NCBI GenBank assembly: GCA_002796125.1
Contig: PCWA01000075.1
Location: 10,317-74,316, forward strand
Direction of reading: 5' to 3'
Source of the DNA: Candidatus Ghiorseimicrobium undicola
Lineage (GTDB): Bacteria > Omnitrophota > Gorgyraeia > Ghiorseimicrobiales > Ghiorseimicrobiaceae
DNA length: 64,000 nucleotides
The position numbers and the translations under genes are program-made. Below the pieces are notes generated by a model. That model saw nothing but the letters and a program-made list of their open reading frames with translations. It was not told where the DNA came from and ran no database searches. Shown one piece after another: positions 9,567-30,861 of this stretch (positions within the stretch are counted from its first letter, which is position 1; the number at the start of each line of letters is the position of its first letter).

Positions 9567-10130
9567 TTACTCCAAAACTCCTCTTATAGAAAAATCTATC
9601 ACCTCTACCCCGGAAACATTACTTCTGACAATAGAAACTATTTCCATGCTTTTAAACCCGGAATAGAAAAACTTATCTTTCTTGAGCGCCTGTAAAAACT
9701 TATGAAGAGAATCAACTTCTTCGCCTTTTAGGGATATCACCGACCCTGTAATATCAAGGATGCCGTCTGATGCGCGCATACGGTTAAACCAGATACCTTT
9801 CGGCAAAAGCAGGCTTAAGCTATTTAACCTTCTGGCCCAACGCGACTTCTCGACAGCCAGTTTGTTCGTAATCCCCAGCCTTGCCTCCAAACCTTCAACG
9901 TCTTTTTTAAGTTTTATGACATCCGCATTTTTGCTCGATATATGAGACCATTCCCTGCCTAAGCTGGATACGCGGTACTTATAGAATAATACGCTAAAAA
10001 GCAACAAAACATGCAGCCCAACCAAAACGATAAGGGCCAGTTTTGCAAAATAAACAACAGCATCAAAATCGATACCCTTCTTAGCTTTTGACAGGCGTAG
10101 ATTTTCCGGTAATAAATTTATTTCTATCAT
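9567..10130 (-). CDS. pilN: pilus assembly protein PilN
   Basis: MIEINLLPENLRL... is the PilN signature INLLP followed by a TM helix. The ATG overlaps the pilM stop (ATGA). The track ORF extends 12 codons upstream. Confidence 0.7.
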   Translation of the reverse strand: MIEINLLPENLRLSKAKKGIDFDAVVYFAKLALIVLVGLHVLLLFSVLFYKYRVSSLGREWSHISSKNADVIKLKKDVEGLEARLGITNKLAVEKSRWARRLNSLSLLLPKGIWFNRMRASDGILDITGSVISLKGEEVDSLHKFLQALKKDKFFYSGFKSMEIVSIVRSNVSGVEVIDFSIRGVLE

Positions 10131-11164
10131 TTTCGTAAAGCGAGACCTGCGGCAACGGCAAAACATGGCCCTGTCTTCGCGCAGTTTTCTTTATCCGCAT
10201 TATCGGAAATTTTTAAATGATCAAAGGGATTCCATATTTTAAAATCAATCCCCATCGCCCTGCTCATAAATTTATCTATGCCGCCAAGCAAGCTGCCGCC
10301 TCCGGTTAGGTATGCGCAGTTTACCGCCCTGCCGGTATTGCTTTCGTAATAATCAAAAGAAAGGCGCAGCTCACCGACCAACTCTGCCAACAAAGATTCC
10401 ACGGGCTCTCTTGCCTCAGCGATTTCATCGTAAGAAACCTTTATCTTCTCTGCCTCATCATAGCCGATCCCCAGCTTTACTGAAATTCTATTGGTAATAT
10501 CAGCCGAACCGAACAAGATGTCGCGGTTAAACCTTAAGCTGCCGGAATCAAGCAGGGACAAGTTACTGATACGCGCTCCGATGTTCAAAACGGCAGACAT
10601 TTCTTTATTTTGCTGTGTATCTAAAAAATTGAATATATTCGTAAGCGCGACCGAATCAATATCCAAAACATTAACTTCAAGGCCAAGGCCGGAGATTAAA
10701 TCAAGCCTGCGCTGCACAAAATCTTTTTTAACCGCGGCAATTAAAACAAGCATTTTATTTCCTTCAAGATTATGTTTCAATATGGCAGAATCCAGGACAA
10801 CTTCGTTGACAGGAAAGGGTATATGCTTTGCGGCTTCATATTTCATAGAATTTTTAAATTCGCTTTCATTCATGTCGGGAAGCATGATGCACCTTGTAAG
10901 CACTTCCTTGCCTGACAATCCCACATTTACGGACCTGCTTTCAATGCCGGCCGCAGCGAGCAATTCACCAAGCGCGGCTTTTATATCCTGATTTTTTATC
11001 TGGCGGGTTCCTAAAGCAGACACTACCGCGTCGCTATTCAACATGTCTATTTTGACTAATTTTATATTACAGCTTCCAATATCCAGTCCGAAAACATAAG
11101 ATTTTTTATCCCTCCTTGGTATAAATTGCAATATTTTCTCGCCAATATCGTTAATTTTAAGCAT
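10127..11164 (-). CDS. pilM: type IV pilus assembly ATPase-like protein PilM
   Basis: Actin-like/FtsA fold N-terminus SYVFGLDIGSCNIKLVKI. 345 aa. Directly upstream of pilN. Confidence 0.85.
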   Translation of the reverse strand: MLKINDIGEKILQFIPRRDKKSYVFGLDIGSCNIKLVKIDMLNSDAVVSALGTRQIKNQDIKAALGELLAAAGIESRSVNVGLSGKEVLTRCIMLPDMNESEFKNSMKYEAAKHIPFPVNEVVLDSAILKHNLEGNKMLVLIAAVKKDFVQRRLDLISGLGLEVNVLDIDSVALTNIFNFLDTQQNKEMSAVLNIGARISNLSLLDSGSLRFNRDILFGSADITNRISVKLGIGYDEAEKIKVSYDEIAEAREPVESLLAELVGELRLSFDYYESNTGRAVNCAYLTGGGSLLGGIDKFMSRAMGIDFKIWNPFDHLKISDNADKENCAKTGPCFAVAAGLALRK

Positions 11165-14922: not shown

Positions 14923-15612
14923 TTAGGCCAGGTTACGGCCGCAGATATATTTAAGACAGGTGGCAGGAAAACCTATATCTCCTACTATTACCTTTCCGCA
15001 TTGGCCTGGCCCGTCATTGATAATCATGCCCTTTTTTTTAGAAATAAAAGTCAATGTTTTGCTTGCAGTTACGCAAATCCCTAACACCCTGCCGGAATCC
15101 GCGTCTAAACCAGATGGTATATCAATGGCCAAAACTGGAATTTTGCTCTTATTAATTTTATATATTAAATCTTTTAGAAACCCTTCAACCTCTCCCCTAA
15201 GGCCTATACCTAAAAGCGCATCCACAATTAAAGAATAATCCCTCATATTTATTGTATTAATTTTATTAGTTTCCGTAATCGGAATTATGCCAAGGCCGAT
15301 TTTTTCTAGAATATTCAAATTATTCTCCGCCGCATCTTTAAAATTCAGGCTATCAGCGCAGAGATAGACATCCACACCCACGCCTCTTGTGGCTAAATGG
15401 CGGGCGCAGGCGAAACCGTCTCCGCCGTTATTGCCTTTACCGCAGAAAACAGCTACTTTTTTATCTTTGGGCCCAAGCATAGCTAAAGCCATTTCAGCCG
15501 CGCTTCTTCCGGCATTCTCCATAAGTACAAGCGCCGGAATCTTTAATTTACGCTGCGCGGCAGCGTCTATCGCCTTTGCCTGCGCTCTCGTTATATTAGG
15601 AAATTTTTGCAT
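14923..15612 (-). CDS. nnrE: NAD(P)H-hydrate epimerase (YjeF N-terminal domain only)
   Basis: ...KKVAVFCGKGNNGGDGFACARHLATRGVGVDVYL YjeF_N signature. 229 aa, no C-terminal dehydratase domain. Confidence 0.8.
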   Translation of the reverse strand: MQKFPNITRAQAKAIDAAAQRKLKIPALVLMENAGRSAAEMALAMLGPKDKKVAVFCGKGNNGGDGFACARHLATRGVGVDVYLCADSLNFKDAAENNLNILEKIGLGIIPITETNKINTINMRDYSLIVDALLGIGLRGEVEGFLKDLIYKINKSKIPVLAIDIPSGLDADSGRVLGICVTASKTLTFISKKKGMIINDGPGQCGKVIVGDIGFPATCLKYICGRNLA

Positions 15613-15649: not shown

Positions 15650-16846
15650 CTAATGGCCGATAAGCTCTAAGACGCTGAATATCGGCAGAAATAAGGAAAT
15701 AACGATACCGCCGATTATTGTTCCCAAAAGCACGATAACTACCGGTTCAATTAAACTCGTCAACGCGGAGACGGCGGCATCTACCTGCTCTTCGTAAAAA
15801 TCAGCAATCTTTGAAAGCATTTTTTCCAGGTGGCCTGTCTGCTCTCCGACGGAAATCATCCTTACCACCATAGGAGGGAAAATATTGCCCCTTGCTAAAG
15901 GTTCAGCTATCGGTTCTCCCTCTTTTATGGAACTGGTCGCCTGAATTATTGCCTGCTCTATTATTTTATTTCCTGAAGTCTTGCCTACAATTTCTAAAGA
16001 ATCTATTATCGGCACCCCGCTTTTAACTAAAGTAGATAATGTCCTGGAGAACTTTGCCACGGCAACTTTTCTAAATAATTGGCCGAATATAGGCACTTTC
16101 AATAACATCTTATCAAAATTATACCTTCCTTTTTCCGTAGATACATAGCGCTGTATTATTATGCCTAAAATAACAAGAATTATGACGATATATAGAAAAG
16201 ACGACCTTATGCCATCGCTTATGCCAATCAAAATTCTGGTAGGGAGCGGAAGCCTGCCCCCCAAGGTTACGAAGATAGCCTTAAACGTAGGAACTACTTT
16301 AATAAGCAAAAAAGTGGTAATAAGTATTGCCATGCTTATTACTACTACGGGATAAATCAGGCTTGAGCGCACTTTCCGCTTCAAAACACTGACTTTTTCC
16401 AGATAAGTAGCGAGCCTGTCCAAAACTTCATCCAACTGGCCTGAAACCTCCCCCGCCCTGACCATGCTTATAAAAAGGCCGGAAAAAACCTTTTGATGTT
16501 TTTTAAGCGCCTCAGAAAAACTCAAGCCCTCTTCTATATCCTGGCGTGTTTTAGCCGTGACCTCCGAAAGGTACTTATCTTCTGTCTGTTCAGCTAAAAT
16601 ACTCAATGTTTGAGCAAGCGGGATACCGCTGTCTATCATCGTAGCGAGCTGCCGGCAAAAAATTACTAATTCATCTAATTTAACGGAACGCGCCTGTAAC
16701 TTAGGCGCTTTTGTCTGATGTATTGAAACAACCAGCAGTTCCTGCCGGTGCAACCTATCAATCAAAGAAACTTCGTCAGGCATCTCAGCCAGCCCGGAAA
16801 CGTTCTTGCCGGTTTTATCTTTTGCCACATACTTATAATTCGGCAT
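15650..16846 (-). CDS. pilC: type IV pilus inner-membrane platform protein (GspF/PilC family)
   Basis: 398 aa with two T2SS-F repeats and three TM segments. Neighbour of the PilB-type ATPases. Confidence 0.85.
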   Translation of the reverse strand: MPNYKYVAKDKTGKNVSGLAEMPDEVSLIDRLHRQELLVVSIHQTKAPKLQARSVKLDELVIFCRQLATMIDSGIPLAQTLSILAEQTEDKYLSEVTAKTRQDIEEGLSFSEALKKHQKVFSGLFISMVRAGEVSGQLDEVLDRLATYLEKVSVLKRKVRSSLIYPVVVISMAILITTFLLIKVVPTFKAIFVTLGGRLPLPTRILIGISDGIRSSFLYIVIILVILGIIIQRYVSTEKGRYNFDKMLLKVPIFGQLFRKVAVAKFSRTLSTLVKSGVPIIDSLEIVGKTSGNKIIEQAIIQATSSIKEGEPIAEPLARGNIFPPMVVRMISVGEQTGHLEKMLSKIADFYEEQVDAAVSALTSLIEPVVIVLLGTIIGGIVISLFLPIFSVLELIGH

Positions 16847-16880: not shown

Positions 16881-17933
16881 TTAAACAAGATTATCTATTA
16901 TTTTTAAAAACACCTCAACAACCTTTGGGTCAAACTGACTGCCGCTATTTCTTTTTATTTCCTCAATGGCGCTTTCCTTAGAAAGTTTAATATTGCGGTA
17001 TGAGCGCTCGGAAGTCATGGCATCATAAGCATCAGCCAGAGAAATTATCCTTGCCCCCAATAGGATATCCCGGCCTTTTTTCCCTGCCGGATAACCGCTG
17101 CCGTCAAAATTCTCATGGTGTTCCTTGACTAATTCGGCGATATTCTTTAAATCTAAATCTCTTAAAATACGCGCGCCCATTTCAGGGTGCTGTTTCATTA
17201 AAATCCATTCATCGGGGCTCAATTTACCGTCCTTGGTTAAAATCGCGTCCCTTATGCCGATTTTCCCTATATCATGCAATCCGCAGGCATCGCGTATATC
17301 TTTTACCTCCTGAAAACTCAAGCTCATATTTTCCGCAATTGCCACCGCATATTTTGTAACATTCTCCGAATGACTATAAGTATATTTATCGCGCATATCA
17401 ATAAGCTGGGCAAGCGCCTTTATTGAACGCACATAAGATTCCTGTAAAGTAGAATATAAAGATATGGAATTTTTAACCCCCTCATCTACCTTTTTACTTA
17501 AAAGAGAAATTTGCTTCTCCATATTAATTATTTTCTCTTCATGTATCATAATATTATTCTTAACTCTTTTGAATAATATTGCCTGCTTTACGACCAAAAA
17601 AAGGTTTTTGGGCTCAAATGATTCCGGCAAAAAATCAAATATACCCAGCTGCAGCATATTATTTATCGCATAGTAAGAATAATTATCGGTTACTGCTATG
17701 ATGAGCGAATCGAACCTTTCTTTTTTTAAATCTTGCAGTAATTTATTTTGTTCGATGGAAACATCCTTTGAACTAACTATTATAACGTCAAAATTATCCA
17801 TCCTGGCCAGGCTGATAGCTTTGGATATTTCCGGCTCAATTGTTACGGAAAAATCCTCTCTGGTTAAGTCTTTTTTCGCATGATAACATAAAGCATGTTC
17901 TTCGCTAATAACTAGCACTTTTCCTTCGGCCAT
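16881..17933 (-). CDS. receiver-like domain + HD-GYP cyclic-di-GMP phosphodiesterase
   Basis: HDIGKIGI and HHENFDGSGYP motifs define HD-GYP. The N-terminal 120 aa is a CheY-like fold with a possibly non-canonical acceptor region. Confidence 0.8.
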   Translation of the reverse strand: MAEGKVLVISEEHALCYHAKKDLTREDFSVTIEPEISKAISLARMDNFDVIIVSSKDVSIEQNKLLQDLKKERFDSLIIAVTDNYSYYAINNMLQLGIFDFLPESFEPKNLFLVVKQAILFKRVKNNIMIHEEKIINMEKQISLLSKKVDEGVKNSISLYSTLQESYVRSIKALAQLIDMRDKYTYSHSENVTKYAVAIAENMSLSFQEVKDIRDACGLHDIGKIGIRDAILTKDGKLSPDEWILMKQHPEMGARILRDLDLKNIAELVKEHHENFDGSGYPAGKKGRDILLGARIISLADAYDAMTSERSYRNIKLSKESAIEEIKRNSGSQFDPKVVEVFLKIIDNLV

Positions 17934-18018: not shown

Positions 18019-19731
18019 TTATTCGCCTTCGCTGGTAACGCGCAAAACCTCTTCTATGGACGTAATGCCTTTAGAAAGCTTTAAATGGGCGTCTTGCCTT
18101 AAAGTGATCATGCCGCACTTAGAAACCGCGTATTCTTTTATTTTATCCATAGAATGCCTATTTATGATCATTGTCCTTATTTGGTCATCTATTTCGAATA
18201 TTTCCAATATCCCTATTCTACCAAAATACCCGGTATTATTGCAATAGTCGCATCCTTTGCCATGATAAAAAACCGCATCTTTATCTATAGCCATTCCCAG
18301 CTTAGCCAAAACCTCCCTGGATATATTTTGTACTTCTTTGCAACGGGGGCAAAGAGTACGTACGAGCCTTTGCGCGCAAGCCATAATTACGCTTGAAGCC
18401 ACCAGAAACGGCTCAACATTCATATCAATAAGGCGGCTGATTATGCCTATGGCATCATTGGTATGCAAAGTAGACAAAACTAATTGCCCGGTCAAAGCGG
18501 CCTTGACAGCTATATCTGCCGTCTCGGAATCACGTATCTCGCCAATCATTATTACATCCGGGCTCTGGCGCAGCAGAGAACGTAAGCCGGAAGCAAAAGT
18601 AAGGCCTGCCTCGCTATTAACCTGAATCTGCGTAATGCCCTCTACCTGATACTCTACGGGATCTTCGATAGTAATAATATTCCTCTCCGGAGTGTTTAAC
18701 TGGCTTAAAACAGAATAGAGCGTGGTTGATTTACCGGAGCCGGTAGGCCCGGTCACTAAAATCATTCCATAAGGCTTGCTTACCGCCTTTTTAAATAAAG
18801 CTAAAGGCCTCTGGCTAAACCCCAGGCTGTCCAGCCCTATAGAAAGATTGGATTTATCTAATATCCTTAAGACAAATTTTTGTCCAAAAATAGTAGGCAG
18901 GGCGGAAACACGAAAATCCACCTCCTTGCCTTCCATGCGGATCTTAAACCTACCGTCCTGAGGAACGCGTGATTCTGTAATATTCAGCCCGGAAATTATC
19001 TTTATGCGGGCAAGAACCGCGTTTTGATTGGCCTTTGGTAAAGTAAAAGCATCCTGCAATTCTCCGTCAATACGATAGCGTACACGCAACGCCCTTTCTT
19101 CCGGCTCGATATGTATATCGGAAGAACGGCGTTTTAAAGCCTGGGCTATCATTAAATCTACAATTTTGACAATCGGCGCTTTTTTACTCTCTGCCAAAGT
19201 ATCGGCTAAATCAATGGATATGCCAAGATCCGCCTCTTTATGCACTATATCCTGAGATTCAGAAACATTCTTTAAAATATCGGTTATGCTTTCTTTGTCC
19301 GATTTATAATAATTGGCTATTGCTTTGGAAATTTCAGAATCCAAACACATAACTGGCTGTATTTCGTAATTTGTCAGCATCTTTAAATCATCCAGAGCAA
19401 AAATATTCAGCGGATCGCTCATAGCGACTGTCAGGACATTGCCGATTTTTGATATCGCGATTAAGTGATACTGGCGGGCGATACGCTCCGGGATTAAATC
19501 TATCGTATCCTTATTTATTTTATAACGCGATAAATCTAACGGTGGGATATAAAGCTCTTTTGAAAGCAGAGAAAAAAGTTCTTCTTCTTTTACAAATCCG
19601 CCGTCTATCAAAAGCTGCTTGATGTTTACGCCTTTTTCTTCCTGCAGTTTCAATATTTTTTTCATCTGGGACTGATTAATGAGCTTATTATCAATAAGTA
19701 TTTTAATCAGTTTTTCCTGTAATGTGGCCAT
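18019..19731 (-). CDS. pilB: type IV pilus assembly ATPase PilB (GspE family), copy 1
   Basis: N-terminal GspE-N domain, Walker A GPTGSGKSTTLYS, Walker B, His box, and C-terminal CxxC...CxxC zinc motif. Confidence 0.85.
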   Translation of the reverse strand: MATLQEKLIKILIDNKLINQSQMKKILKLQEEKGVNIKQLLIDGGFVKEEELFSLLSKELYIPPLDLSRYKINKDTIDLIPERIARQYHLIAISKIGNVLTVAMSDPLNIFALDDLKMLTNYEIQPVMCLDSEISKAIANYYKSDKESITDILKNVSESQDIVHKEADLGISIDLADTLAESKKAPIVKIVDLMIAQALKRRSSDIHIEPEERALRVRYRIDGELQDAFTLPKANQNAVLARIKIISGLNITESRVPQDGRFKIRMEGKEVDFRVSALPTIFGQKFVLRILDKSNLSIGLDSLGFSQRPLALFKKAVSKPYGMILVTGPTGSGKSTTLYSVLSQLNTPERNIITIEDPVEYQVEGITQIQVNSEAGLTFASGLRSLLRQSPDVIMIGEIRDSETADIAVKAALTGQLVLSTLHTNDAIGIISRLIDMNVEPFLVASSVIMACAQRLVRTLCPRCKEVQNISREVLAKLGMAIDKDAVFYHGKGCDYCNNTGYFGRIGILEIFEIDDQIRTMIINRHSMDKIKEYAVSKCGMITLRQDAHLKLSKGITSIEEVLRVTSEGE

Positions 19732-19792
19732 AAAATAGTTATGCGTTGTGAGTTATGGGTATTGAGTTTAAAAATCCATAAGTTTTGACTTT

Positions 19793-21514
19793 TTATTTCT
19801 CATCTGCTGCGGTAACCTTCAACACTTCTTCTATAGTGGTTATACCTGCATATGCTTTTTCCATACCGGACTCTCTTAGCGTTTGCATTCCGGAAGCACG
19901 CGCCGATTCTTTTATTTTATGCTCCTCTGCGGCGTTAATAATCAAATCTTTAACCGCTGTATCAAGGGTAAAAATCTCGCCTATGCTGATCCTGCCTTTA
20001 TAGCCGGAATTTAAACAAGCAGCACAGCCCTTGCCTCTATAAAATACCGCCGGTTTGCCTTTGGGGTGTTTTATATTCAGCTTATCTAATGATTCTTCGT
20101 TTAATGTATACGCTTCTTTGCACTTAGGACAAATCACGCGTACCAGCCTTTGGGCAATTGCGCATACCACCGAAGATACAATTAAAAACGGTTCAACCCC
20201 CATATTGACAAGCCGCACTATAGAACCGGCGGCTGTTGTGGTGTGAAGCGTTGAAAGGACTAAATGCCCCGTCAAGGCTGATTTGATAGCTATGTCGGCG
20301 GTATCAAAATCCCTTATCTCTCCCACCATGATTATATCCGGATCCTGACGCAAGATAGAACGAAGGCTGGAAGCAAAAGTCAAGCCGACTTCTTCTCTTA
20401 TGTTAACCTGGTTTATGCCCGCCAACTGGTACTCTACCGGATCTTCAACGGTAATAATATTCAGCTGGGGTTTATTAATAAGATTTAATAAAGAGTATAG
20501 CGTGGTTGTCTTACCGCTGCCTGTTGGCCCGGTCACCAAAATCATACCGTGCGGCCTAAGGGCATTTCGTTTGATTAATTCTAAATCCCGGTTTGAAAAA
20601 CCCAACTGGTCTATATCCAGCGTCGTCGAGCTCCTGTCTAATATGCGCAGGGCGGCTTTTTCGCCAAAGCTCGACGGCAGTATCGATACGCGGAAATCGA
20701 CTTCCCTTCCCTCAATTCTAATCTTGAATCTGCCGTCCTGCGGTATTCTATGTTCCGATATATTAAGGTTGGATATGACCTTTATGCGTGAAATAATGGA
20801 AGCATGTAAAGATTTTGGGGGCGATTCCTTTTCCCGCAATGAGCCGTCTACCCTGAAACGTATACGCATAGCACGGTCAAACGGTTCAATTAATATATCC
20901 GACGCCTTTAACTTTATCGCGTCTTCCAATATCATATTAGTAATTTTAATAACCGGGGCTTCCTGGCTTAACTGGATAAGAGTGCCGGCATCAAGGCTAT
21001 CTTCTTTATCATCTTTTTTTATTAATTCAATCTGAAAATCCGATATATCCTTAAGTACCGTATTAAATGTACTTTGATCGCTGGAGCCGTAATACCTCTC
21101 CAGGGAAGCGGCTATGTCCTCAGATGAAGCTATTAACGGTATAATTTTATAACCTGTGAGGGCGCGAATATCATCTATGACAAATATATCCAGCGGGTCA
21201 GCCATGACTACCGTCAAAAAATCTTTTCTCTTGGATAAAGGGATAATTTGATAATGCCGGGCGGTTTGGGCGGGAATAGTTTCCAGAATCTCCGGTTCGA
21301 TCTCCAGCTGGGAAAGCTCGATACAGGGGAATCCTAACCCCTGGCTCAGAACAGATACCAAATCTTTTTCATTAATAAATTTCAGCCCTATTAATATATC
21401 TCTTAATTTCCCGCCCTTTTCTTTTTGAACCTGCAAAGCCGTTTTTAATTGTTCTTCATTTATCAGGTTATTTTTTAACAATATTTCTGAAAGGCGGTCC
21501 TTTAAAGAAGGCAT
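19793..21514 (-). CDS. PilB/GspE/MshE-like secretion ATPase, copy 2 (paralog)
   Basis: Same architecture, Walker A GPTGSGKTTTLYS and a tetracysteine motif. The N-terminus RLSEILLKNNLINEEQLKTALQVQ resembles the MshEN c-di-GMP-binding motif. Confidence 0.8.
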   Translation of the reverse strand: MPSLKDRLSEILLKNNLINEEQLKTALQVQKEKGGKLRDILIGLKFINEKDLVSVLSQGLGFPCIELSQLEIEPEILETIPAQTARHYQIIPLSKRKDFLTVVMADPLDIFVIDDIRALTGYKIIPLIASSEDIAASLERYYGSSDQSTFNTVLKDISDFQIELIKKDDKEDSLDAGTLIQLSQEAPVIKITNMILEDAIKLKASDILIEPFDRAMRIRFRVDGSLREKESPPKSLHASIISRIKVISNLNISEHRIPQDGRFKIRIEGREVDFRVSILPSSFGEKAALRILDRSSTTLDIDQLGFSNRDLELIKRNALRPHGMILVTGPTGSGKTTTLYSLLNLINKPQLNIITVEDPVEYQLAGINQVNIREEVGLTFASSLRSILRQDPDIIMVGEIRDFDTADIAIKSALTGHLVLSTLHTTTAAGSIVRLVNMGVEPFLIVSSVVCAIAQRLVRVICPKCKEAYTLNEESLDKLNIKHPKGKPAVFYRGKGCAACLNSGYKGRISIGEIFTLDTAVKDLIINAAEEHKIKESARASGMQTLRESGMEKAYAGITTIEEVLKVTAADEK

Positions 21515-21622
21515 GTGCGCTCACTTTGCTCAGGAAAATCCGGGCACCGGCAGGCAGCAGGCAGAAAAAATCTCAAATCCTGATTACCGGGCCCTGCCCA
21601 ATAAAGTACAAATGGCTTTTGG

Positions 21623-22084
21623 CTATTTTTTATAAAATCTTTCGATAGCATTTTTTATATCGGTAGTGGTGCTTATAAAAATCTGCACGGTAGAATTAGC
21701 TAACAGCTCAATGTCATCTACAGCCTGCAGGTTAAGGGGATTAGACATGGCGACTGTTAAATTACTCCCTATTTTATCGATCGCGATCAGGCAATATTGT
21801 TTAGCCACATTATAAGGAACAATCCGCACAATATCGGTATCTATCTCATAATTTGCCAAGGGAAGATACGGAAAACCATACTGCGCGGTAAGCGCCTGAG
21901 CAATAGCCTCTTCCGTAACAAAACCCAGGCTTACAAGAATTTCGCCTACCAGCCCGCCTTTCTCCTTTTGAAGATTAAGGGCTTCAATAAGCTGGCGCTG
22001 CGAAATCATATTTCGCTCAACTAATAACTCGCCTAATTGTTTAGGATTAATCCGCCTTAAAGGTAACGGCATATTTTTAATCAA
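21623..22084 (-). CDS. standalone GspE N-terminal (T2SSE_N / MshEN-like) domain protein
   Basis: 153 aa. KQLGELLVERNMISQRQLIEALNLQ...GFVTEEAIAQALTAQYGFPYLPL...VAKQYCLIAIDKIGSNLTVAMSNPLNLQAVDDIE aligns along its length with the N-domains of the two PilB paralogs. No ATPase domain. Confidence 0.6.
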   Translation of the reverse strand: MIKNMPLPLRRINPKQLGELLVERNMISQRQLIEALNLQKEKGGLVGEILVSLGFVTEEAIAQALTAQYGFPYLPLANYEIDTDIVRIVPYNVAKQYCLIAIDKIGSNLTVAMSNPLNLQAVDDIELLANSTVQIFISTTTDIKNAIERFYKK

Positions 22085-23457
22085 GAAGCTAATAAGTCCT
22101 TCACTTTATTAATTAAATCTGTTGCGTTAATTCCGTCTATAGGATTTTCGCTGACAGCACGGTTCAACGTAATTCTTTTTTTGACGTCCGTTTCTTCGCC
22201 ATATATATACTCTATCTTTTTTACCATATCTTGGGCGATATTTTCAGCCTGGCGCTTGTTTTTTTCAGGGAGAACTATAGCAAATTCACTGTCTGAGAAC
22301 CTGGCAGCTTTATCTATTTCTCCGATATTGCTTTTTATAATCATGGCTATTTTCTTTAATACGGATTCCGCATGCGCAGAACCGAAATTCGCGCAAAACT
22401 CTTTATAACGATTAATACTTAAAACAATAAAAGCGCACGGCCTTTGGCTTATTATGGCCCTCTTTATTTCTTCTTCCAGCCTTTCCTTTATAAAAGAAGA
22501 ATTGTAAAGTCCGGTTAAAGCATCCTTAACTTCAAGGCGATTGATATGATTCAAAAGTATATCATTCTCTATGGCGATAGTTATTTGTTTTACAAAGATA
22601 TCGATAAGCTTAAAATTATCATCCCGGTATTCCAAATTTCTGTCATTTCCTATGCCGGCCAAGCCAAATACCTTGCCATGAACATATATAGGCGCGATAA
22701 CAGCGTCTGTCAGAGCGAATATGCGCCTAAACTCATCAATCATTTTATTGGGCGGCACTTTCTTGTTCAACGCAAATGTTTTTCTATCTTTTAAAACTTT
22801 GGCGAATATATTATCCGATGCCGCATTAAACTCCCTATTCAACAAATAGTCGGAATTAATGCCGTAGATAGATTTTACCAATATTTTTTCTTCCTGTTTC
22901 AGCAGTAAAAATGCCGAATCTGAATCGCCTATCTGCAGCATTTTTTCTACGCTTAGATCTAATGTCTCATTAATATCGGCGCCTTCGGAAATAAACGAAC
23001 TTACCTGTAAAAGGCTGGAGAGAATAACCACCTTACGGTTAATTTCCAGATTTATTTCTTTAGTTTCCTGGCCGTATTTTTCAAGCTCCCTCATATTATT
23101 TTTTATGCGGCAAGTCAACTGCTGCAAGGCATCTTCCAAATCACCGATTTCATCATCGCGTTTTGCCCGGGATACATAATCAACTTCACCTCTGGCTATG
23201 TCCTTCGCTTTGGAAGAAATATTAATTATGGGGTCTATAACCTGCTTAATTATAAAAAAACCGCTTACAGCCACAAAAATACTTATACAAACCAATAAAT
23301 AAATATTTGATTTAATGCCTATGGTGGGAAGCATATAAGTCGAAATTACATATATGGATATCAATAACGGCAACACAGACATAAGATAAAAACTTATGCG
23401 CAATTTATACCGTAAGCCGCGTGACGACAAGGATAATTGTTTTAAAATATTTTTCAT
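22081..23457 (-). CDS. membrane sensor with HAMP-like, GAF-like and a degenerate GGDEF domain (SDSEF in place of GGDEF)
   Basis: Two N-terminal TM helices. DALTGLYNSSFIKERLEEE...ARFSDSEFAIVLPE matches the GGDEF domain layout but with the active-site GG(D/E)EF replaced. Confidence 0.65.
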   Translation of the reverse strand: MKNILKQLSLSSRGLRYKLRISFYLMSVLPLLISIYVISTYMLPTIGIKSNIYLLVCISIFVAVSGFFIIKQVIDPIINISSKAKDIARGEVDYVSRAKRDDEIGDLEDALQQLTCRIKNNMRELEKYGQETKEINLEINRKVVILSSLLQVSSFISEGADINETLDLSVEKMLQIGDSDSAFLLLKQEEKILVKSIYGINSDYLLNREFNAASDNIFAKVLKDRKTFALNKKVPPNKMIDEFRRIFALTDAVIAPIYVHGKVFGLAGIGNDRNLEYRDDNFKLIDIFVKQITIAIENDILLNHINRLEVKDALTGLYNSSFIKERLEEEIKRAIISQRPCAFIVLSINRYKEFCANFGSAHAESVLKKIAMIIKSNIGEIDKAARFSDSEFAIVLPEKNKRQAENIAQDMVKKIEYIYGEETDVKKRITLNRAVSENPIDGINATDLINKVKDLLAS

Positions 23458-23520: not shown

Positions 23521-23549
23521 ATAGTATTCTATATTTTAGATACTGTCAA
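23521..23549 (-). promoter_or_regulatory. Putative sigma70-type promoter for the GGDEF-like/MshEN-like/pilB2/pilB1/HD-GYP/pilC gene run
   Basis: On the minus strand: TTGACA, 17 nt, TACTAT. An AAAGGAGTG RBS lies 5 nt before the ATG of the GGDEF-like gene. Coordinates approximate. Confidence 0.4.
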
Positions 23550-23818: not shown

Positions 23819-25567
23819 CTACTTGCCTGATATATCTATATGACTCCACGGTAAAATCTCATTTTCGCCGATTGCTCTATTTACATAAAATTCCGGGCTT
23901 AGAGATAATGCCTTGAATGCCTCAACCCATAAATTGAAATTAAAATTATCCTGCGTGTTCTTTGGGCTAAAACCGCCCTCCCGGCAATTTATGCCTTGAT
24001 CCTGCCGGCTTAATTTCAACACCTCATAAATCAGCCTGCCGCCTTTTCTGCCCGAGCGCGCCAGCACTGCTTCAATGAAACTTTTTTCTAAACTATGAAA
24101 ATCCATTTTAATTGCCCTGCCATAGCCGGAACTTTTAAGCGCAGAAAGCAAATACCCCCTCTTTTCTTTAAGTAATCCGATATTATTCATTGGCGATCTC
24201 TCAAATGCCGTGTGAGGCTTTGGGATAAAAGAAGAAATACTTATCGTAGCGTTGCCCAGTTTTCCATCAATAGCTTTCCTTAGGCGTACAATTTCTACGG
24301 TCAATTCTATTATTTTCTTAAGATCGTCCCTTGATTCATCGGGTAAACCCATCATAAAATACAATTTGATATGTTTGTACCCCGCCTTGTAAGCATTTCC
24401 TGCAACCTCAAATAATTCATGTATATTAATATCTTTATTTATAGATTTGCGCAACCTATCGCTTCCTGCCTCCGGAGCAAAAGTCAGCCCTGTTTTCTTT
24501 ACAGAATTAAGTAAAAATGGGATATTTTTTATATAATTTTTAATTTTTAAAGAAGGCAGGGATACGCTTATATCTTTACCCTGGAAAGAATCAATAAGAC
24601 TATGCAAAATCTCTAAAATCTTAGGATGGTCTCCGCAGGATAAACCCAAGAGAGAAATCTCTTCATAGCCTGAATTCTTAAGTAAGGCTTCTGCCAATCC
24701 CAATACCTTTTCCTTAGAGCGTATTCTGTATGGATAATAAAAAGCTCTCGCCTGGCAGAAAGCGCAAGCATTAGGACAGCCGCGCATAATCTCCAAAATT
24801 ACGCGGTCATGCACTGTTTGTACATAAGGGACTACCCAGCGTTGCGGAAAAAAAGAATTATCCAGGTTGGAAACAATGCGTTTTTTAATCCTGCGGGGGG
24901 CACATCGATCATTTGGAGAAATACCCTTGATCGTTTGATCATGGTTATATTCCACTTCATAAAGCGACGGCACATAAATTCCCTGTATACCGGCTAGTTC
25001 CTTTAGCAATTCTTTGCGCGGCGCAGCCCTTGATTTAGCGGCCCTAACCTTATCTATCAACTCCACGGCCAGCTCTTCTGCCTCGCCGATAACAAAACAA
25101 TCAAAAAAATCGCTCATTACTTCAGGATTTAGGCAACTGTATCCCCCGCCCACCACGAGGGGATGCGCCTGGCCTCTCTCGCTTTGAAAAATAGGGATAT
25201 TTGAAAGCTCCAGCATCTTTAAGACATTAAGATATGCTAATTCATAAGAAAGAGAGAAGCCCAAAATATCAAATCCAGATAAAGGGCTACCGCTTTCCAG
25301 GGAACTTAAAGCCAGCTTTTCTTCATGAATTATCTTCTCCAGGTCTTCTCCCGGTAAAAAAACCCTCTCACAGCAAACATCATCAATTTCATTAAATAAA
25401 CCGTAGATTATCCGGAATCCCAGATGGCTCATCCCTATTTCATAGATATCAGGAAAACATAAAGCCGCGCGAATCTTAATCTGTTCCGGATTCTTCCGCA
25501 CAACATTATATTCACTGCCCAGATAACGCCCCGGTTTATAAACTTTTTCTAAAATTTTATCGTCCAT
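23819..25567 (-). CDS. TIGR03960-family radical SAM protein (usual partner of DUF2344/TIGR03936)
   Basis: MDDKILEKVYKPGRYLGSEYN... N-terminus typical of this family. CxxxCxxC cluster RGCPNACAFCQA. 582 aa. Confidence 0.75.
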   Translation of the reverse strand: MDDKILEKVYKPGRYLGSEYNVVRKNPEQIKIRAALCFPDIYEIGMSHLGFRIIYGLFNEIDDVCCERVFLPGEDLEKIIHEEKLALSSLESGSPLSGFDILGFSLSYELAYLNVLKMLELSNIPIFQSERGQAHPLVVGGGYSCLNPEVMSDFFDCFVIGEAEELAVELIDKVRAAKSRAAPRKELLKELAGIQGIYVPSLYEVEYNHDQTIKGISPNDRCAPRRIKKRIVSNLDNSFFPQRWVVPYVQTVHDRVILEIMRGCPNACAFCQARAFYYPYRIRSKEKVLGLAEALLKNSGYEEISLLGLSCGDHPKILEILHSLIDSFQGKDISVSLPSLKIKNYIKNIPFLLNSVKKTGLTFAPEAGSDRLRKSINKDINIHELFEVAGNAYKAGYKHIKLYFMMGLPDESRDDLKKIIELTVEIVRLRKAIDGKLGNATISISSFIPKPHTAFERSPMNNIGLLKEKRGYLLSALKSSGYGRAIKMDFHSLEKSFIEAVLARSGRKGGRLIYEVLKLSRQDQGINCREGGFSPKNTQDNFNFNLWVEAFKALSLSPEFYVNRAIGENEILPWSHIDISGK

Positions 25568-25581
25568 ATTATAAAATTAAA

Positions 25582-26670
25582 TTAGAATACCATTCTCCTT
25601 TTACTTATATTGCCAATAATGCCCAGCCCCATAAAAGTCATAAACATAGAAGTCCCGCCGTAGCTGACTAGAGGCAAAGGGATCCCAACTACCGGCATAA
25701 CTCCTATAGTCATGCATATGTTAACAACTACCTGAAAGAATATTACTGACATTATGCCTATTATTAATAAGCGCCCAAAAGGGTCCTTTGTAGAATAAAT
25801 AATTTTGATGCACTCATTAAACAACATATAGAAAATAGCCAGCAATATGAAAGATCCTATCAGGCCCATAGATTCAGCGAAACAGCTAAAAATAAAATCC
25901 GTATGCCGTTCGGGAAGAAAATTAAGCGTATTTTGCGTCCCGGAAAGCCAGCCCAAGCCAAAAAGCCTGCCGGAACCAACAGCAATTTTAGATTGGATAA
26001 CCGTATATCCCGCGCCCAAAGGGTCAAGATTGGGATTAATAAAAACCAATAGCCTTTCCTTTTGATAATCTTTCAGAAAATGCCAGGCGACAGGCAATGA
26101 AATAAGATTTAACGCCAATAGTGAAAATACATATCTTTTCTTTACTCCCGCAACAAAAATCAAAGCAATAAAAACAAATATAAATATAATTGCCGTCCCC
26201 AAATCAGGCTGCTGCATGATTAATAATGCGGGAAAAGCTACAAGCAATGCCGGGATAAACACCGTTCTAAAAAAACCCGTATCCCTTATTCTTAATTTCA
26301 CATTATAAGCGTCCTTTTGGCTAAAATAACGCGCAAGGCATAAAATCACGGAAAATTTCGCCAGTTCAGAGGGCTGAAAATTGAAAACCCCTAACTCAAG
26401 CCAGCGCTGCGCGCCTAATTTAACCCGTCCGGATACGAGAACAAGGACAAGAAAAACTATGCTTAACAGATAAAACCCAAAAGCTAAGTCATAGAATTTA
26501 CGGTAATTAAAATTATAAAAAATAAAAAATGCGCCTATCCCAAAAAACAGCCATAAAAATTGGCGAAAAAATATAGCACCGTCTTTATGCGAAGTGCTGT
26601 ATATGGTCAAAAGACCTATAATAGCTATAACAAGGGCAATAATGAATAATCTTCGCGCGTTTCTATCCAT
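25582..26670 (-). CDS. rodA: peptidoglycan glycosyltransferase RodA (SEDS family)
   Basis: 10-TM SEDS protein. Canonical position after mrdA in the mreBCD-mrdA-rodA operon. Confidence 0.85.
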   Translation of the reverse strand: MDRNARRLFIIALVIAIIGLLTIYSTSHKDGAIFFRQFLWLFFGIGAFFIFYNFNYRKFYDLAFGFYLLSIVFLVLVLVSGRVKLGAQRWLELGVFNFQPSELAKFSVILCLARYFSQKDAYNVKLRIRDTGFFRTVFIPALLVAFPALLIMQQPDLGTAIIFIFVFIALIFVAGVKKRYVFSLLALNLISLPVAWHFLKDYQKERLLVFINPNLDPLGAGYTVIQSKIAVGSGRLFGLGWLSGTQNTLNFLPERHTDFIFSCFAESMGLIGSFILLAIFYMLFNECIKIIYSTKDPFGRLLIIGIMSVIFFQVVVNICMTIGVMPVVGIPLPLVSYGGTSMFMTFMGLGIIGNISKRRMVF

Positions 26671-26684
26671 TTTAATGTTTAAGT

Positions 26685-28391
26685 TTAAATTAAATCCTCT
26701 TCCAAAAATCTATTTAAAATTTCTTTGACTATAGAGCAAGCGACGCTGCTGCTGCCTGCGTGTTCAATAAATACGCAAAAGGCGATTTTTGGTTTATCAG
26801 CCGGCGCAAACCCGACAAACCAGCCATGCGAAGCCTTATTAAAAACCTGCGCCGTTCCGGTTTTGCCTGCTACGGCTAAGCCCGGAATATCCAACATGCC
26901 TGCTGTACCCTGAGGATCTTTCACCGCCTCTAACAATGCCCGTTTTAAAAAATACAAATATTTTTTATTAATACGAAGTTTTTGCGGGCCGGCCTTTTTC
27001 GAGGCGCGCTTATCACCTATTTTCTCAACCAGGTAAGGGTCCACTAACAAGCCGTCATTGGCAAATACACAAACTAAACGCAGCATCTGAATCGGGGTTA
27101 CCAATAAATCACCCTGCCCGATAGAAAAATTTACTGTATCACCCTTATACCAACGCTCACCCTTTTTCAATTTCCAGTTTACGGTCGGCACAAATCCATT
27201 TTTCTCTTGGGGTAAATCTATACCGGTGGGATGGGCCAGTGAAAATTTAAAAGCGCTTGCCGATAACGCTTCCGGGCCGGCTAATAAGCCGGCGTTATAA
27301 AAGAAAATATCACAGGAATAAGCTACGGCTTTGGCTAAGTCTACTGGGCCATGCCTGGCCCAGCATTTAAAGTCCCTGCCGCCCACACGCATTTTTCCGT
27401 CACAAACAAATGTGGTATGCTCAGAAATCTTTTTAGACTCAAGGGCCGCTAACGCGGTAACCAGCTTAAATACGGACGCAGGCGGATACAAGCCGCTGAT
27501 AGCACGGTTTACAAACGGCGCATCAGCATTATTAAGCAGGCGCACTATATTTCTTCTATCATTACGCACAAACAAAGACGGATCATAAGCAGGGTGGCTG
27601 GCCATCGCCAAAATCGCCCCGCTCAATGGATTCATGATAATGACACACCCTGCTTTATCGCCTAAAGCGCTGCTGGCGATACGCTGCATATCTAAATCTA
27701 TAGTTAAAGTTATGTCCGTGCCTTTTTCCGGAACGCGCACGCCCAATAATCTAACCATGCGCCCCTTATTATCAACTTCTATTTGCATGCCTCCTTTTCT
27801 AAACCTTAAAAAAAGCTCGTAAGCTTCTTCCAAGCCGGAATAGCCGATGATATCCCTCATCTTATAACCATAAGGCTTAAGCTTATCTATTCGCGCCTGG
27901 TCAGCCTCCCGTAAATAGCCGATGATATGCGATAAATCATCTCCATAAGGATACCTTCTCTCTGTTTTGGCCTGCACGATCAGTCCCTGTAATTTATATT
28001 TATTCTCCGCTAAAGACAATGCTTCTTTTTTGGAAAGGTCCCCCTTGACTGTCACGGGTGCAAAAGGGGCAATGTATCCGCGTTTATATACCGACTGCAA
28101 ATTACTTTTGTCTTCTTTTAAAATCCTGGCCAGCTCAGTAAAAACTTTTTCTTTATCCGATAATTCTTGCGGTATAATGCTGGCAGAAAAGGACAATACG
28201 CTGTCAACCAAGACTCTTCCCTGGTTATCTAATATGTTGCCGCGGGCGGCTTCCTGAGGCACTATTCTTATGCGGTTCTTCTGGCTTAACCCATGATAAA
28301 AATCCCCTCTTATTATCTGGGTATAAAATAAACAGGAAAAAACGATAAGAAGAATTAAAACGATTATCCGAAAGAATATCCTGATTCGCAT
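26685..28391 (-). CDS. mrdA: penicillin-binding protein 2 (elongasome transpeptidase)
   Basis: N-terminal TM, dimerisation domain, and transpeptidase motifs SVFK and KTGTA. Confidence 0.85.
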   Translation of the reverse strand: MRIRIFFRIIVLILLIVFSCLFYTQIIRGDFYHGLSQKNRIRIVPQEAARGNILDNQGRVLVDSVLSFSASIIPQELSDKEKVFTELARILKEDKSNLQSVYKRGYIAPFAPVTVKGDLSKKEALSLAENKYKLQGLIVQAKTERRYPYGDDLSHIIGYLREADQARIDKLKPYGYKMRDIIGYSGLEEAYELFLRFRKGGMQIEVDNKGRMVRLLGVRVPEKGTDITLTIDLDMQRIASSALGDKAGCVIIMNPLSGAILAMASHPAYDPSLFVRNDRRNIVRLLNNADAPFVNRAISGLYPPASVFKLVTALAALESKKISEHTTFVCDGKMRVGGRDFKCWARHGPVDLAKAVAYSCDIFFYNAGLLAGPEALSASAFKFSLAHPTGIDLPQEKNGFVPTVNWKLKKGERWYKGDTVNFSIGQGDLLVTPIQMLRLVCVFANDGLLVDPYLVEKIGDKRASKKAGPQKLRINKKYLYFLKRALLEAVKDPQGTAGMLDIPGLAVAGKTGTAQVFNKASHGWFVGFAPADKPKIAFCVFIEHAGSSSVACSIVKEILNRFLEEDLI

Positions 28392-28418
28392 TTATAATCC
28401 CTAATTCGAAAACCGCGC

Positions 28419-28892
28419 TCAGACAAAAAGCCCTCTGGCGGCTTTTTTAAAAACGTCAAACAAAATATAAGCGAATAAAATATTATAGATAACTTCTACA
28501 AATAGAGTCAGAAATAAAAATCTTCCGGCAGCAAAATTTCCCTTAATCATCAAAGAGTTTAATAAGATATGCAGCAGAAAATCGCCTATGGTAGCCAGGA
28601 CTACAATTAAAAGATAAAGAACCCGGTTGTCTTTATATAAATGCTTATTGATTCTATCGGAAATTAAAACCCATAGGGTAAAATAAAAAATGTTGGCGCC
28701 AAACGGGGCTGAGGAAACGGCATCTTTTAACATGCCGCATAAAAAGGCGATAAATAATGCTTTCTTAAGGCCGAACAGGCCCGCAAAAACTACAAGGATT
28801 AAAAAAATATCCGGGCGGACATTAAAAAGAAATAAATTTGGAGGTAAAACAATACCAAAAACTAAACAGAGCAATATATATAATATTATCAT
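28419..28892 (-). CDS. mreD: rod shape-determining protein MreD
   Basis: 157-aa polytopic membrane protein in the canonical position after mreC. Confidence 0.6.
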   Translation of the reverse strand: MIILYILLCLVFGIVLPPNLFLFNVRPDIFLILVVFAGLFGLKKALFIAFLCGMLKDAVSSAPFGANIFYFTLWVLISDRINKHLYKDNRVLYLLIVVLATIGDFLLHILLNSLMIKGNFAAGRFLFLTLFVEVIYNILFAYILFDVFKKAARGLFV

Positions 28893-28932
28893 GGATAATA
28901 AACAACAACATAAATCGCGAGGGGAAATTCTT

Positions 28933-29718
28933 TTATTTAAGTACCGCTACTTCCTCCAGGATAGAAAGCTTGACTTTAGGACGGATTATTGCTTGAGCGC
29001 TCACGCCGTCCTCTTCTTTGTGTACGCTAATAACCTCCCCTATAACTATGCCTTTTTCATAATCGTTATCCAGGCCCAAAGTAAGAATCAAATCGCCTTC
29101 TCTAATATCCGAATCTGATGCTAAATAGCGCATAAGGCATCTTCCCAATAACGTTCCCGAGATAACGCCTGTTTCCCTGGAACGCTGATCAAATGCCGCT
29201 ATGTTTAAATTCGGGTCGGTTATAAGCATAACTCTGCTTGTATTCTTAGAAACATCAATAACCCTGCCTGCCAAACCCAGCTCTGTAATAACTAATTTTC
29301 CGTCTTTTATCCCGTCATTAAGGCCTTTATTAATAATCAGGCTGTTGGCCCAATTAGAGGCATCGCGGCAAATCACCCGCGCGGCAATCGTCGTTAAATC
29401 AGTATTTTGCTTAAATGAAAGCAGCTTTCTAAGGCGGGCATTTTCAAGATCTAACTCACGCGCCCTGATAAACCCTTGCTTTAATGATTCATTTTCTTTT
29501 TCTAAAACCGCTGCTTTACGGTAATTTATGCGGTACGATAATAATGCCTTAACTTCATTGACAATAAAATTAACGGCATAAATCGGGAATTTAATCGCGC
29601 TGACTATTATTGGTTTTGGGGAAGGTAAAAATGAAAAATTAAAAATCAGAATTAATATTATCGCTAATATTAATAAGGTAAGTGTTTTCTTCTTGCGTTT
29701 AAAGTTAAATAATGGCAC
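28933..29718 (-). CDS. mreC: rod shape-determining protein MreC
   Basis: N-terminal TM, coiled coil, and beta-rich C-terminal domain. Downstream of mreB. Confidence 0.75.
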   Translation of the reverse strand: MPLFNFKRKKKTLTLLILAIILILIFNFSFLPSPKPIIVSAIKFPIYAVNFIVNEVKALLSYRINYRKAAVLEKENESLKQGFIRARELDLENARLRKLLSFKQNTDLTTIAARVICRDASNWANSLIINKGLNDGIKDGKLVITELGLAGRVIDVSKNTSRVMLITDPNLNIAAFDQRSRETGVISGTLLGRCLMRYLASDSDIREGDLILTLGLDNDYEKGIVIGEVISVHKEEDGVSAQAIIRPKVKLSILEEVAVLK

Positions 29719-29784
29719 CTATGAGTTCTCAAATTCAACGGCTCTTGGGTTCTCGAGTTCATGAAATCACTCAAGAACTCTATA

Positions 29785-30861
29785 TTATATTTCCTGTCGT
29801 TGAGGCACAGTTACACGCCTCAAGTATTTTATTTCGTTTAAAACTTTTCCCGTGCCTAATGCTACGGCGGTAGTCGGCTCGTCAGCAACGTGCACAGGAA
29901 GGCTTGTTTCTTCGGCTATCAGCTTATCTAAGCCGCGTAAAAGCGAACCGCCCCCAGCCATAACTATGCCATGATCTATCAAATCCGCCGATAATTCCGG
30001 CGGCGTTCTTTCAAGTGAAATTTTTATCGCTTCTATTATCGCCTGTATCGGCTCATGCAGCGCTTCCCTTACTTCTTCGGAAGAAATTGTAACCGCCTTA
30101 GGTAAGCCCGAAATCAAATCTCTTCCTTTAATATCCATGCTTAATTCGTCTTCCAAAGGAAAAGCCGAACCGATTTTCCACTTTATAGCTTCTGCTGTGC
30201 GCTCGCCAATCATTAAATTATATACTTTTTTGATATGCTCCACTATCGCCCCATCCATCTCATCTCCGCCGATACGTATGGATTTAGAAAAAACTATTCC
30301 GGCCAAGGAAATTACGGCGATCTCGGTCGTTCCTCCTCCTATATCTACAATCATATTTCCGGTGGGTTCCTGTATAGGAAGGCCGACACCGATGGCAGCA
30401 GCCATCGGCTCCTGCACTAAAAATATCTCCCTGGCTCCCGCGCGTTCGGCAGAATCTCTAACTGCCCGCTTTTCTACTTCGGTTATGCCGGAAGGTATAG
30501 CTATAACCATGCGCGGCCTGACCAATACTTTCCTATGATGAACCTTCTTTATAAAATACCTAAGCATTGCCTCGGTTATTTCAAAATCCGCTATTACGCC
30601 GTCTTTCATCGGCCTTATTGCCACTATATCCCCGGGCGTACGTCCCAGCATCCTTTTTGCCTCTTCTCCCACAGCAAGTACTTTAGGAGTCCCTTTTTGT
30701 ATAGCAACTACTGAGGGTTCGCACAAAACCACGCCGTCCCCCTTTACATAAACCAAGGTTGTGGCAGTGCCTAAATCTATGCCCATATCATTAGAAAAAA
30801 GACCTAATATATAATTCAGAGCTTTACGGACAATATCCATAACTGTTTTAAATTTAGGCAT
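29785..30861 (-). CDS. mreB: rod shape-determining actin homolog MreB
   Basis: ...[28 protein letters not shown]... actin-fold phosphate-1 motif. 358 aa. Confidence 0.9.

Follow-up and report, generated by a model that had tools for sequence, protein, structure and literature searches.

Organization of the pilus gene cluster

The window, i.e. the whole 64-kb stretch of DNA that was analysed, carries a type IVa pilus cluster on the minus strand at approximately 6.9 kb to 23.5 kb. The order of transcription is HAMP-GAF-GGDEF, MshEN, PilB1, PilB2, receiver plus HD-GYP, PilC, YjeF_N and then the pilins, PilM, PilN, PilO and the secretin, and all window features described below are on the minus strand. 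The open reading frame under study, positions 21623..22084, encodes a free-standing MshEN protein; the assignment draws on the open reading frame and its domain matches, the N-termini of orthologues, a census of motif residues and a structure model. Upstream is the gene for a HAMP-GAF-GGDEF membrane protein with a degenerate active site (22081..23457), a conserved neighbour whose stop codon is overlapped by the TTG start codon of the MshEN open reading frame. Downstream is a 108-nt spacer (21515..21622), which displays a GC-rich hairpin and four in-frame stop codons, followed by pilB1 (19793..21514), encoding a type IV pilus extension ATPase that consists of MshEN and T2SSE domains. A second extension ATPase paralogue, PilB2, is situated at 18019..19731, and both ATPases show a degenerate c-di-GMP motif. 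The cluster continues with a pseudo-receiver plus HD-GYP protein, a predicted c-di-GMP phosphodiesterase with intact HD, HHE and GYP motifs (16881..17933), and with the PilC platform protein (T2SSF; 15650..16846), recognized by domain match and synteny. PilM (10127..11164), the usual docking partner of N1/MshEN_C in PilB/GspE-type ATPases (PMC8389850), might also bind the free domain.

PilB1 and PilB2 (18019-21514) both carry Walker A, Walker B and tetracysteine motifs. Their N-domains share approximately 42% identity, and the tandem paralogues are kept across the Omnitrophota. The mreB-mreC-mreD-PBP2-RodA genes and a radical SAM gene (23819-30861) are found directly upstream of the pilus operon, and this linkage of cell-elongation and pilus genes is kept in most of the fetched loci, including all of those whose sequence reaches far enough in the upstream direction. 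At 14923-15612, between pilC and the pilins, is a gene for YjeF_N (NAD(P)H-hydrate epimerase), which is also found after PilC in locus L006. A promoter-like site at 23521-23549 (TTGACA, 17 nt, TACTAT), just 5′ of the GGDEF-like gene, could mark the operon start, with the count of promoter-like sites in the region no higher than in shuffled sequence.

A riboswitch or attenuator function of the 108-nt spacer was considered and rejected, as there is no Rfam match even at E ≤ 5 and the folding energy does not surpass that of shuffles (z = 0.32). No terminator-like site was found on the strand of the spacer. Although the spacer and pilB1 share a reading frame, the four stop codons exclude a read-through fusion of MshEN and PilB1.

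The free-standing MshEN protein

When started at the TTG, the open reading frame gives a peptide chain of 153 aa. An ATG at position 22072 gives 149 aa (MPLPLRR...), and since orthologue N-termini begin at the equivalent position, the ATG is the likelier start; the true product is thus likely the 149 aa chain and not the 153 aa one.

Residues 16–68 match NF053729, the NCBIfam profile of the 53-residue c-di-GMP motif (64.3 bits, cutoff 38), and residues 69–152 match PF05157, the Pfam MshEN profile (65.9 bits, cutoff 23.1). Thus the protein consists of both MshEN subdomains and nothing else. The T2SSE ATPase domain (PF00437) gives no match in the open reading frame, which ends at residue 153. 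With this domain absent and four in-frame stops ahead of pilB1, the open reading frame is not a PilB, despite the label "type IV pilus assembly protein PilB" given to some orthologues. The exact protein is found in the database as "hypothetical protein" (Candidatus Omnitrophica MAG). The family is now annotated either as hypothetical or, wrongly, as PilB.

An AlphaFold2 model made from 70 homologues has a mean pLDDT of 88.5 and shows a four-helix bundle (residues 17–23, 29–42, 46–52 and 58–69) followed by an alpha/beta subdomain. This is the fold expected of MshEN, an N-terminal four-helix bundle and a C-terminal three-stranded sheet flanked by helices. The top Foldseek match in the PDB is V. 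cholerae MshE-N with c-di-GMP (5HTL; E = 6e-12, TM 0.70–0.75); the other best matches are three Thermus PilF GSPII domains, the Xanthomonas PilB N-domain and XpsE-N. A prior sequence-only reading of the window had proposed that a complete copy of T2SSE_N/MshEN is encoded alone at this position, and the two subdomain profiles, the absence of an ATPase domain and the 5HTL-like model bear this out.

Conservation, synteny and selection

The sequence-only reading had suggested a search for standalone orthologues in related genomes together with an estimate of selection. In a scan of one genome per species, relatives of the free MshEN protein are encoded in at least 584 stretches, and 84 loci were examined, consisting of the 80 best species-representative matches and four metagenome look-ups. 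Source labels of the best 80 of the at least 584 loci are Omnitrophota/Omnitrophica in 59 cases and "uncultured Planctomycetia"/"Planctomycetales" MAGs in 19, and two have no phylum label. Nearly all of the best 120 database matches are 145–154 aa in length with 64–76% identity. A few are larger, 213–221 aa with 54–62% identity; P0003, P0005 and P0026 are relatives of this size.

An intact MshEN gene of 144–165 aa is situated directly upstream of PilB1 in 84 of 84 loci, in agreement with the earlier argument that the continuous open reading frame speaks against simple decay. PilB2 follows PilB1 in all of the 84 loci whose contig reaches that far. The order that is kept is PBP2-RodA-rSAM-GGDEF (degenerate)-(PilT)-MshEN-PilB1-PilB2-(HD-GYP)-PilC, with PilT directly upstream of the MshEN gene in 31 of the 84 loci. 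Gaps between cluster neighbours in the fetched loci are usually a few bases, or the genes overlap. Distant members (38–45% identity) still show MshEN-PilB-PilB-PilC. Two open reading frames of approximately 1170 aa that read as PilB1-PilB2 fusions (L016 7321-10842 and L052 9592-13104), and would have spoken for a heteromeric motor, are artefacts of masked N runs.

Mean pairwise identity is 68.5% for the free MshEN protein, compared with 69.4% for PilT, 62.3% for PilC, 61.7% for PilB1, 61.3% for PilB2, 52.2% for RodA and 44.6% for the GGDEF protein. Among the cluster proteins compared, only PilT is more conserved than the free protein, but as the 80 genome loci were picked as best matches to free MshEN, its conservation relative to its neighbours is inflated somewhat. 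Where synonymous sites are not saturated, the median dN/dS of free MshEN is approximately 0.05–0.08. This is similar to PilB and PilC, is no higher than that of the ATPases, and shows strong purifying selection.

The 61 free proteins of a neighbor-joining tree group as a single clade, apart from every PilB1 and PilB2 N-domain. Members of the free family are 69% identical to one another and 35–37% identical to the N-domain of either PilB, and identity to Geobacter PilB (approximately 40%) is as high as to the PilBs encoded next to it. The separate clade and these identities indicate that the split between free MshEN and the PilB N-domains is old.

Ligand-site residues in the free protein, PilB1 and PilB2

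The N-termini of 85 free proteins, 81 PilB1 and 72 PilB2 were aligned to V. cholerae MshE, and census positions carry the V. cholerae numbering. G11 is Gly in all 85 free proteins. In PilB1 this position is Thr (45), Ile (13), Ser (5), Asn (4), Lys (4) or Gln (3), with no Gly among the residues listed, and in PilB2 it is Ile, Thr, Ser, Val or Leu. G40 is likewise Gly in 85/85 free proteins, but Ser or Lys in 71/81 PilB1 and Arg, Lys or Ser in 47/72 PilB2. Q32 is Gln in every free protein (85/85), in 77/81 PilB1 and in 61/72 PilB2. Q61, Gln in 85/85 free proteins, is replaced by Gly or Glu in 77/81 PilB1, and in the 72 PilB2 it is Glu 29 times and Gln 24 times. The six Leu-cluster positions of the free protein show Leu, Ile or Val throughout, save for a few isolated exceptions. 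Thus, of the three proteins, only free MshEN retains the c-di-GMP-contacting residues, i.e. both Gly, both Gln and the Leu clusters.

The free protein of the window displays two 24-residue motifs, 5 residues apart, with Gly at position 3, a Leu/Ile/Val cluster and Gln at position 24. Its residues are L17, G18, L32, L36 and Q39, the spacer KEKGG, then V46, G47, I61, L65 and Q68; at census position G18 it has Asn, a position that is Gly in 63 of 85 free proteins. The two motifs start QLGE...LVGE in the free protein, RLSE...KLRD in PilB1 and KLIK...NIKQ in PilB2. In the window, PilB1 has Ser at G11 and Arg at G40, and PilB2 has Ile at G11, Lys at G40 and Lys at Q61. The NF053729 scores are 64.3 bits for the free protein, 51.9 for PilB1 and 28.5 for PilB2, the last below the cutoff of 38, and 70 of 70 family members tested match the profile at E ≤ 0.001. 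As PilB1 scores above the cutoff, its loss of binding is read from the individual residues. The claim that the free copy matches the c-di-GMP motif better than either neighbouring ATPase is thus upheld, both by the scores and by the two motif glycines kept in the free copy only.

The importance of the glycines is known from VcMshEN, where c-di-GMP binding is lost with G11L and becomes 72-fold weaker with G40I (PMC5013675 Supplementary Table 1). The first residue of each motif is less regular. Motif II starts with Leu in 84 of 85 free proteins, which is within the extended R/K/L consensus, and motif I starts with Gln in 72 of 85, preceded by Lys in 82 of 85; a Gln at this place is outside both the original (R) and the extended consensus. 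The extension of the first-residue consensus to R/K/L comes from PMC11731258, whose authors also suggest that motifs starting with a hydrophobic residue can be expected to bind with high affinity. In PilF GSPII-B, Lys and Leu replace the two Arg, and the domain binds c-di-GMP at 6 nM (PMC11731258), so the loss of Arg in the free protein need not argue against binding. In PilF GSPII-A, small sequence deviations can abolish binding (PMC12002112). Binding of c-di-GMP by the free protein is a well-motivated prediction.

c-di-GMP turnover genes in the cluster

The GGDEF protein of the window (22081-23457) carries the signature SDSEF, an I-site RxxD that lacks the Arg, and changes at several substrate- and metal-binding positions. 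Its orthologues show GDNEF, GDDEF, RDDKF and similar sequences, and the canonical GGDEF is found in 1 of 77. The adjacent protein was thus rejected as the signal source, the active site and I-site being degenerate in nearly all orthologues. Despite this degeneracy, its gene is consistently kept upstream of those for the pilus ATPases. A canonical GG[DE]EF motif is absent from the open reading frames of the 64-kb window, and among the fetched loci there is a single exception to its absence. A c-di-GMP source, should there be one, would lie elsewhere in the genome.

The HD-GYP protein (16881-17933) keeps its HD, HHE and GYP motifs in 28 of 28 orthologues and for this reason looks like an active phosphodiesterase, while its receiver domain lacks the phospho-acceptor Asp. 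About half of the loci have an intact HD-GYP gene in the operon. There are two alternative layouts: loci with HD-GYP do not have PilT next to MshEN, and the PilT loci (approximately one-third) do not have HD-GYP.

Fusion of MshEN with PilB1 and other architectures

The best 150 representatives of clusters made at 50% identity include approximately 40 single-MshEN proteins of 105–180 aa, as well as tandem MshEN arrays and (MshEN)2-T2SSE ATPases. The sequence-only reading had stated that T2SSE_N domains normally occur only as the N-terminal module of ATPases; this does not hold, given these single-MshEN representatives and the further architectures in PMC5013675 Supplementary Table 4.

One of the relatives, the 765 aa P0137, consists of an MshEN module, a linker and a colinear PilB1 orthologue. 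Residues 193–758 of P0137 match PilB1 over its full length without a gap, with 49% identity over 566 residues. The first module and the free protein share 43% identity (131 bits), compared with only 84–97 bits for the module and PilB N-domains. In the second module the glycine positions are degenerate and a PilB1-like SQGLG is found in place of Q61. Downstream on the P0137 contig are a PilB2-like gene and then PilC, and there is no separate free MshEN gene on the contig. The contig probably belongs to another lineage, since its GC content is 62.5% compared with 40.8% in the window. Thus free MshEN and PilB1, two open reading frames in the window, are one polypeptide in P0137, whereas a stop codon and spacer separate them in every Omnitrophota genome examined. 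Such a fusion is a classic indication of physical association, and it points to association of free MshEN with PilB1. It also points to an event of gene fission or gene fusion, and either direction is possible. The domain split that the sequence-only reading had listed among its three alternatives gains support from this natural fusion, and is compatible with the adaptor reading.

Comparison with known systems

MshEN is a widespread c-di-GMP receptor domain with many architectures, including the ATPase-less PA3740 and cce_1044 (PMC5013675). Because ATPase-less MshEN proteins are already known, a free-standing MshEN is not in itself a new kind of thing. P. aeruginosa PA3740 (MshEN-xT2SSE_N1), which is among the proteins tested experimentally for c-di-GMP binding (PMC5013675), and Cyanothece cce_1044 ((MshEN_N)2) resemble the free protein in being MshEN-type proteins that lack an enzymatic output domain. 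Their descriptions set both apart, however, as the second subdomain is highly diverged in PA3740 and absent from cce_1044, and for neither has a role beside site-less PilB paralogues in a pil operon been described.

The MshEN of V. cholerae MshE (5HTL; PMC5013675) shares with the free protein the two-subdomain fold and the layout of 24+5+24 residues, and equivalents of L10, G11, L25, L29, Q32, G40, L58 and Q61 are all present. Unlike MshE, the free protein has no ATPase, both motif-initial Arg are replaced (Gln and Leu), and its binding is a prediction. Thermus thermophilus PilF GSPII-B (8PDK; PMC11731258) is similar in its Arg-free site, the Leu of motif II, a Glu as fourth residue and the fold. 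However, GSPII-B is an internal domain of an (MshEN)3-ATPase while the free protein stands alone, and motif I starts with Lys in GSPII-B but with Gln, after the near-invariant Lys (82/85), in the free protein. The (MshEN)2-T2SSE ATPases, e.g. Cthe_1107 and P0137, contain the same parts in the same order as free MshEN plus PilB1, but as one polypeptide.

The closest functional analogue is FimX-PilZ-PilB of Xanthomonas citri (7LKO; PMC8389850), a precedent for c-di-GMP input in trans. There the ND0/MshEN_N of PilB has lost the motif and the signal arrives in trans, which is the same logic. In that system a degenerate EAL domain serves as receptor, with PilZ as the bridge, whereas the receptor presumed here is a paralogue of the ATPase N-domain that stands free. 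The literature searched gave nothing specific on a free-standing MshEN in a pil operon or on regulation of PilB in Omnitrophota. The combination not found described in that literature is a complete single MshEN fixed in a pil operon, conserved phylum-wide and accompanied by two site-less PilB paralogues.

Proposed role of the free MshEN protein

The analysis establishes the domain content and fold, the phylum-wide synteny, the strong purifying selection, the retention of ligand-site residues in the free copy only and the natural fusion with a PilB1 orthologue of another lineage. On balance the gene probably encodes a split, trans-acting MshEN c-di-GMP receptor of the Omnitrophota type IV pilus extension motor. 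Among the three alternatives of the sequence-only reading, the trans-acting c-di-GMP adaptor is the best supported, from the ligand residues kept and the HD-GYP gene in about half of the loci, although both are arguments from sequence. Against this reading stand the Gln at the start of motif I, the Asn at G18 of the window protein, the absence of a canonical GGDEF open reading frame from the window, the PilT loci that do not have HD-GYP, and the NF053729 score of PilB1 above the cutoff. A complex with the PilB N-domain gains indirect support from the invariant adjacency of the genes and from the natural fusion.

The mechanism would be as follows. The MshEN domains of PilB1 and PilB2 themselves have lost the c-di-GMP-contacting glycines, PilB1 one Gln as well, while the free protein of 145–150 aa keeps all of these residues. 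The free protein would bind one c-di-GMP in its four-helix bundle, at a site that has no Arg but a Gln in motif I and a Leu in motif II. Binding may alter the orientation of the two MshEN subdomains, as in GSPII-B (PMC11731258). The conserved N1-like subdomain could then attach to the PilM ring or to PilB1 (and PilB2). Docking of PilM/GspL by the N1 fold is known from the PilB-PilM and GspE-GspL interactions (PMC8389850). Docking would switch pilus assembly on or off, and the HD-GYP enzyme of the operon would reset the c-di-GMP signal. We infer here the binding of ligand, the protein partner and an effect that may be activating or inhibitory.

A more elaborate form of this mechanism is a three-part motor, in which sensing by PilB1 and PilB2 has been handed over to a free, Arg-free MshEN of very high affinity that sits on vacant PilM sites, so that c-di-GMP selects PilB1, PilB2 or PilT. 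Of the PilM-PilN dodecamer proposed for Xanthomonas, six units have no PilB N-domain bound to them (PMC8389850). This form is speculative and we consider it doubtful; if true, it would be a regulation of the motor not described for any cultured bacterium.

The protein might instead work with no ligand at all, as a structural or competitive subunit that occupies docking sites on PilM (or PilC) or caps PilB1/PilB2, thus acting as an assembly factor or a brake. It could then arbitrate between PilB1, PilB2 and PilT, with the four-helix bundle serving as a protein-interaction surface only. Conservation of the MshEN_C half is as strict as that of the N half, with invariant residues that include G70–L76, P90, D103, K104 and N115–N118, and its N1 fold is the known PilM/GspL-binding module; PilT directly upstream in 31/84 loci, the lack of an active cyclase encoded nearby and a motif I that does not begin with R, K or L all fit this explanation as well. 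However, the exact invariance of the ligand contacts G11, G40, Q32, Q61 and the Leu clusters, while both PilB paralogues drift, is hard to explain without a ligand, and the intact HD-GYP in the operon of 28 loci argues for a nucleotide signal. A ligand-independent subunit seems unlikely.

The gene could also be the product of fission of an (MshEN)2-T2SSE gene, leaving a "domain 1" that associates non-covalently with PilB1 and has no independent regulatory role. In favour of this, pilB1 immediately follows the gene in every case, mostly after only a few bases; P0137 is fused and has the same downstream genes; and ATPases of (MshEN)2- and (MshEN)3-T2SSE architecture have been described (PMC5013675 Supplementary Table 4). 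Such an origin is largely compatible with a trans-acting receptor and differs only in denying independent signalling. The free family is, however, more conserved than the PilB1 N-domain (69% compared with 57%), and a second free copy is found in the operon of some genomes (L001, L071), both of which suggest a function beyond that of a tethered piece, and we give this explanation little credence. As to a decaying remnant of a pilB duplication, the second alternative of the sequence-only reading, or a chance open reading frame, the non-ATG start of the longest open reading frame and the 34–38% identity to the neighbouring PilB N-termini could be taken as signs of either. Yet each of the 84 loci has an intact copy, and at least 584 stretches in species-representative genomes match; the 68.5% identity of the gene product, its dN/dS of 0.05–0.08, separate monophyletic clade and confident structure model leave next to no room for this view. 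The duplication remnant is accordingly rejected.

For the trans-acting receptor, the interest lies in the sensor being a separate small soluble protein, in which binding and transmission could be studied as an interaction of two proteins. For the Omnitrophota, a large uncultured phylum whose attachment likely involves type IV pili, the gene gives a specific and testable handle on pilus regulation. Transmission of the signal from MshEN to the ATPase is unsettled even for MshE and PilF (PMC5013675, PMC12002112), and a natural two-protein system would allow its study.

Additional MshEN genes and fusions

The operon of some genomes includes a further free-standing MshEN gene, as in L001 (16088-16498) and L071, where it is situated between PilB2 and PilC. 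The second copy in L001 comes after a 1375 aa GGDEF-AAA-HEAT protein.

MshEN is also found fused to other domains. P0164 (723 aa) consists of an MshEN domain, which is 49% identical to the free protein, together with PilZ and DUF7305. A DUF7305 gene is also present after the pilus ATPase genes in L089 (13599-14723). P0164 and L089 hint at a link between MshEN sensors and a pilus-associated surface protein.
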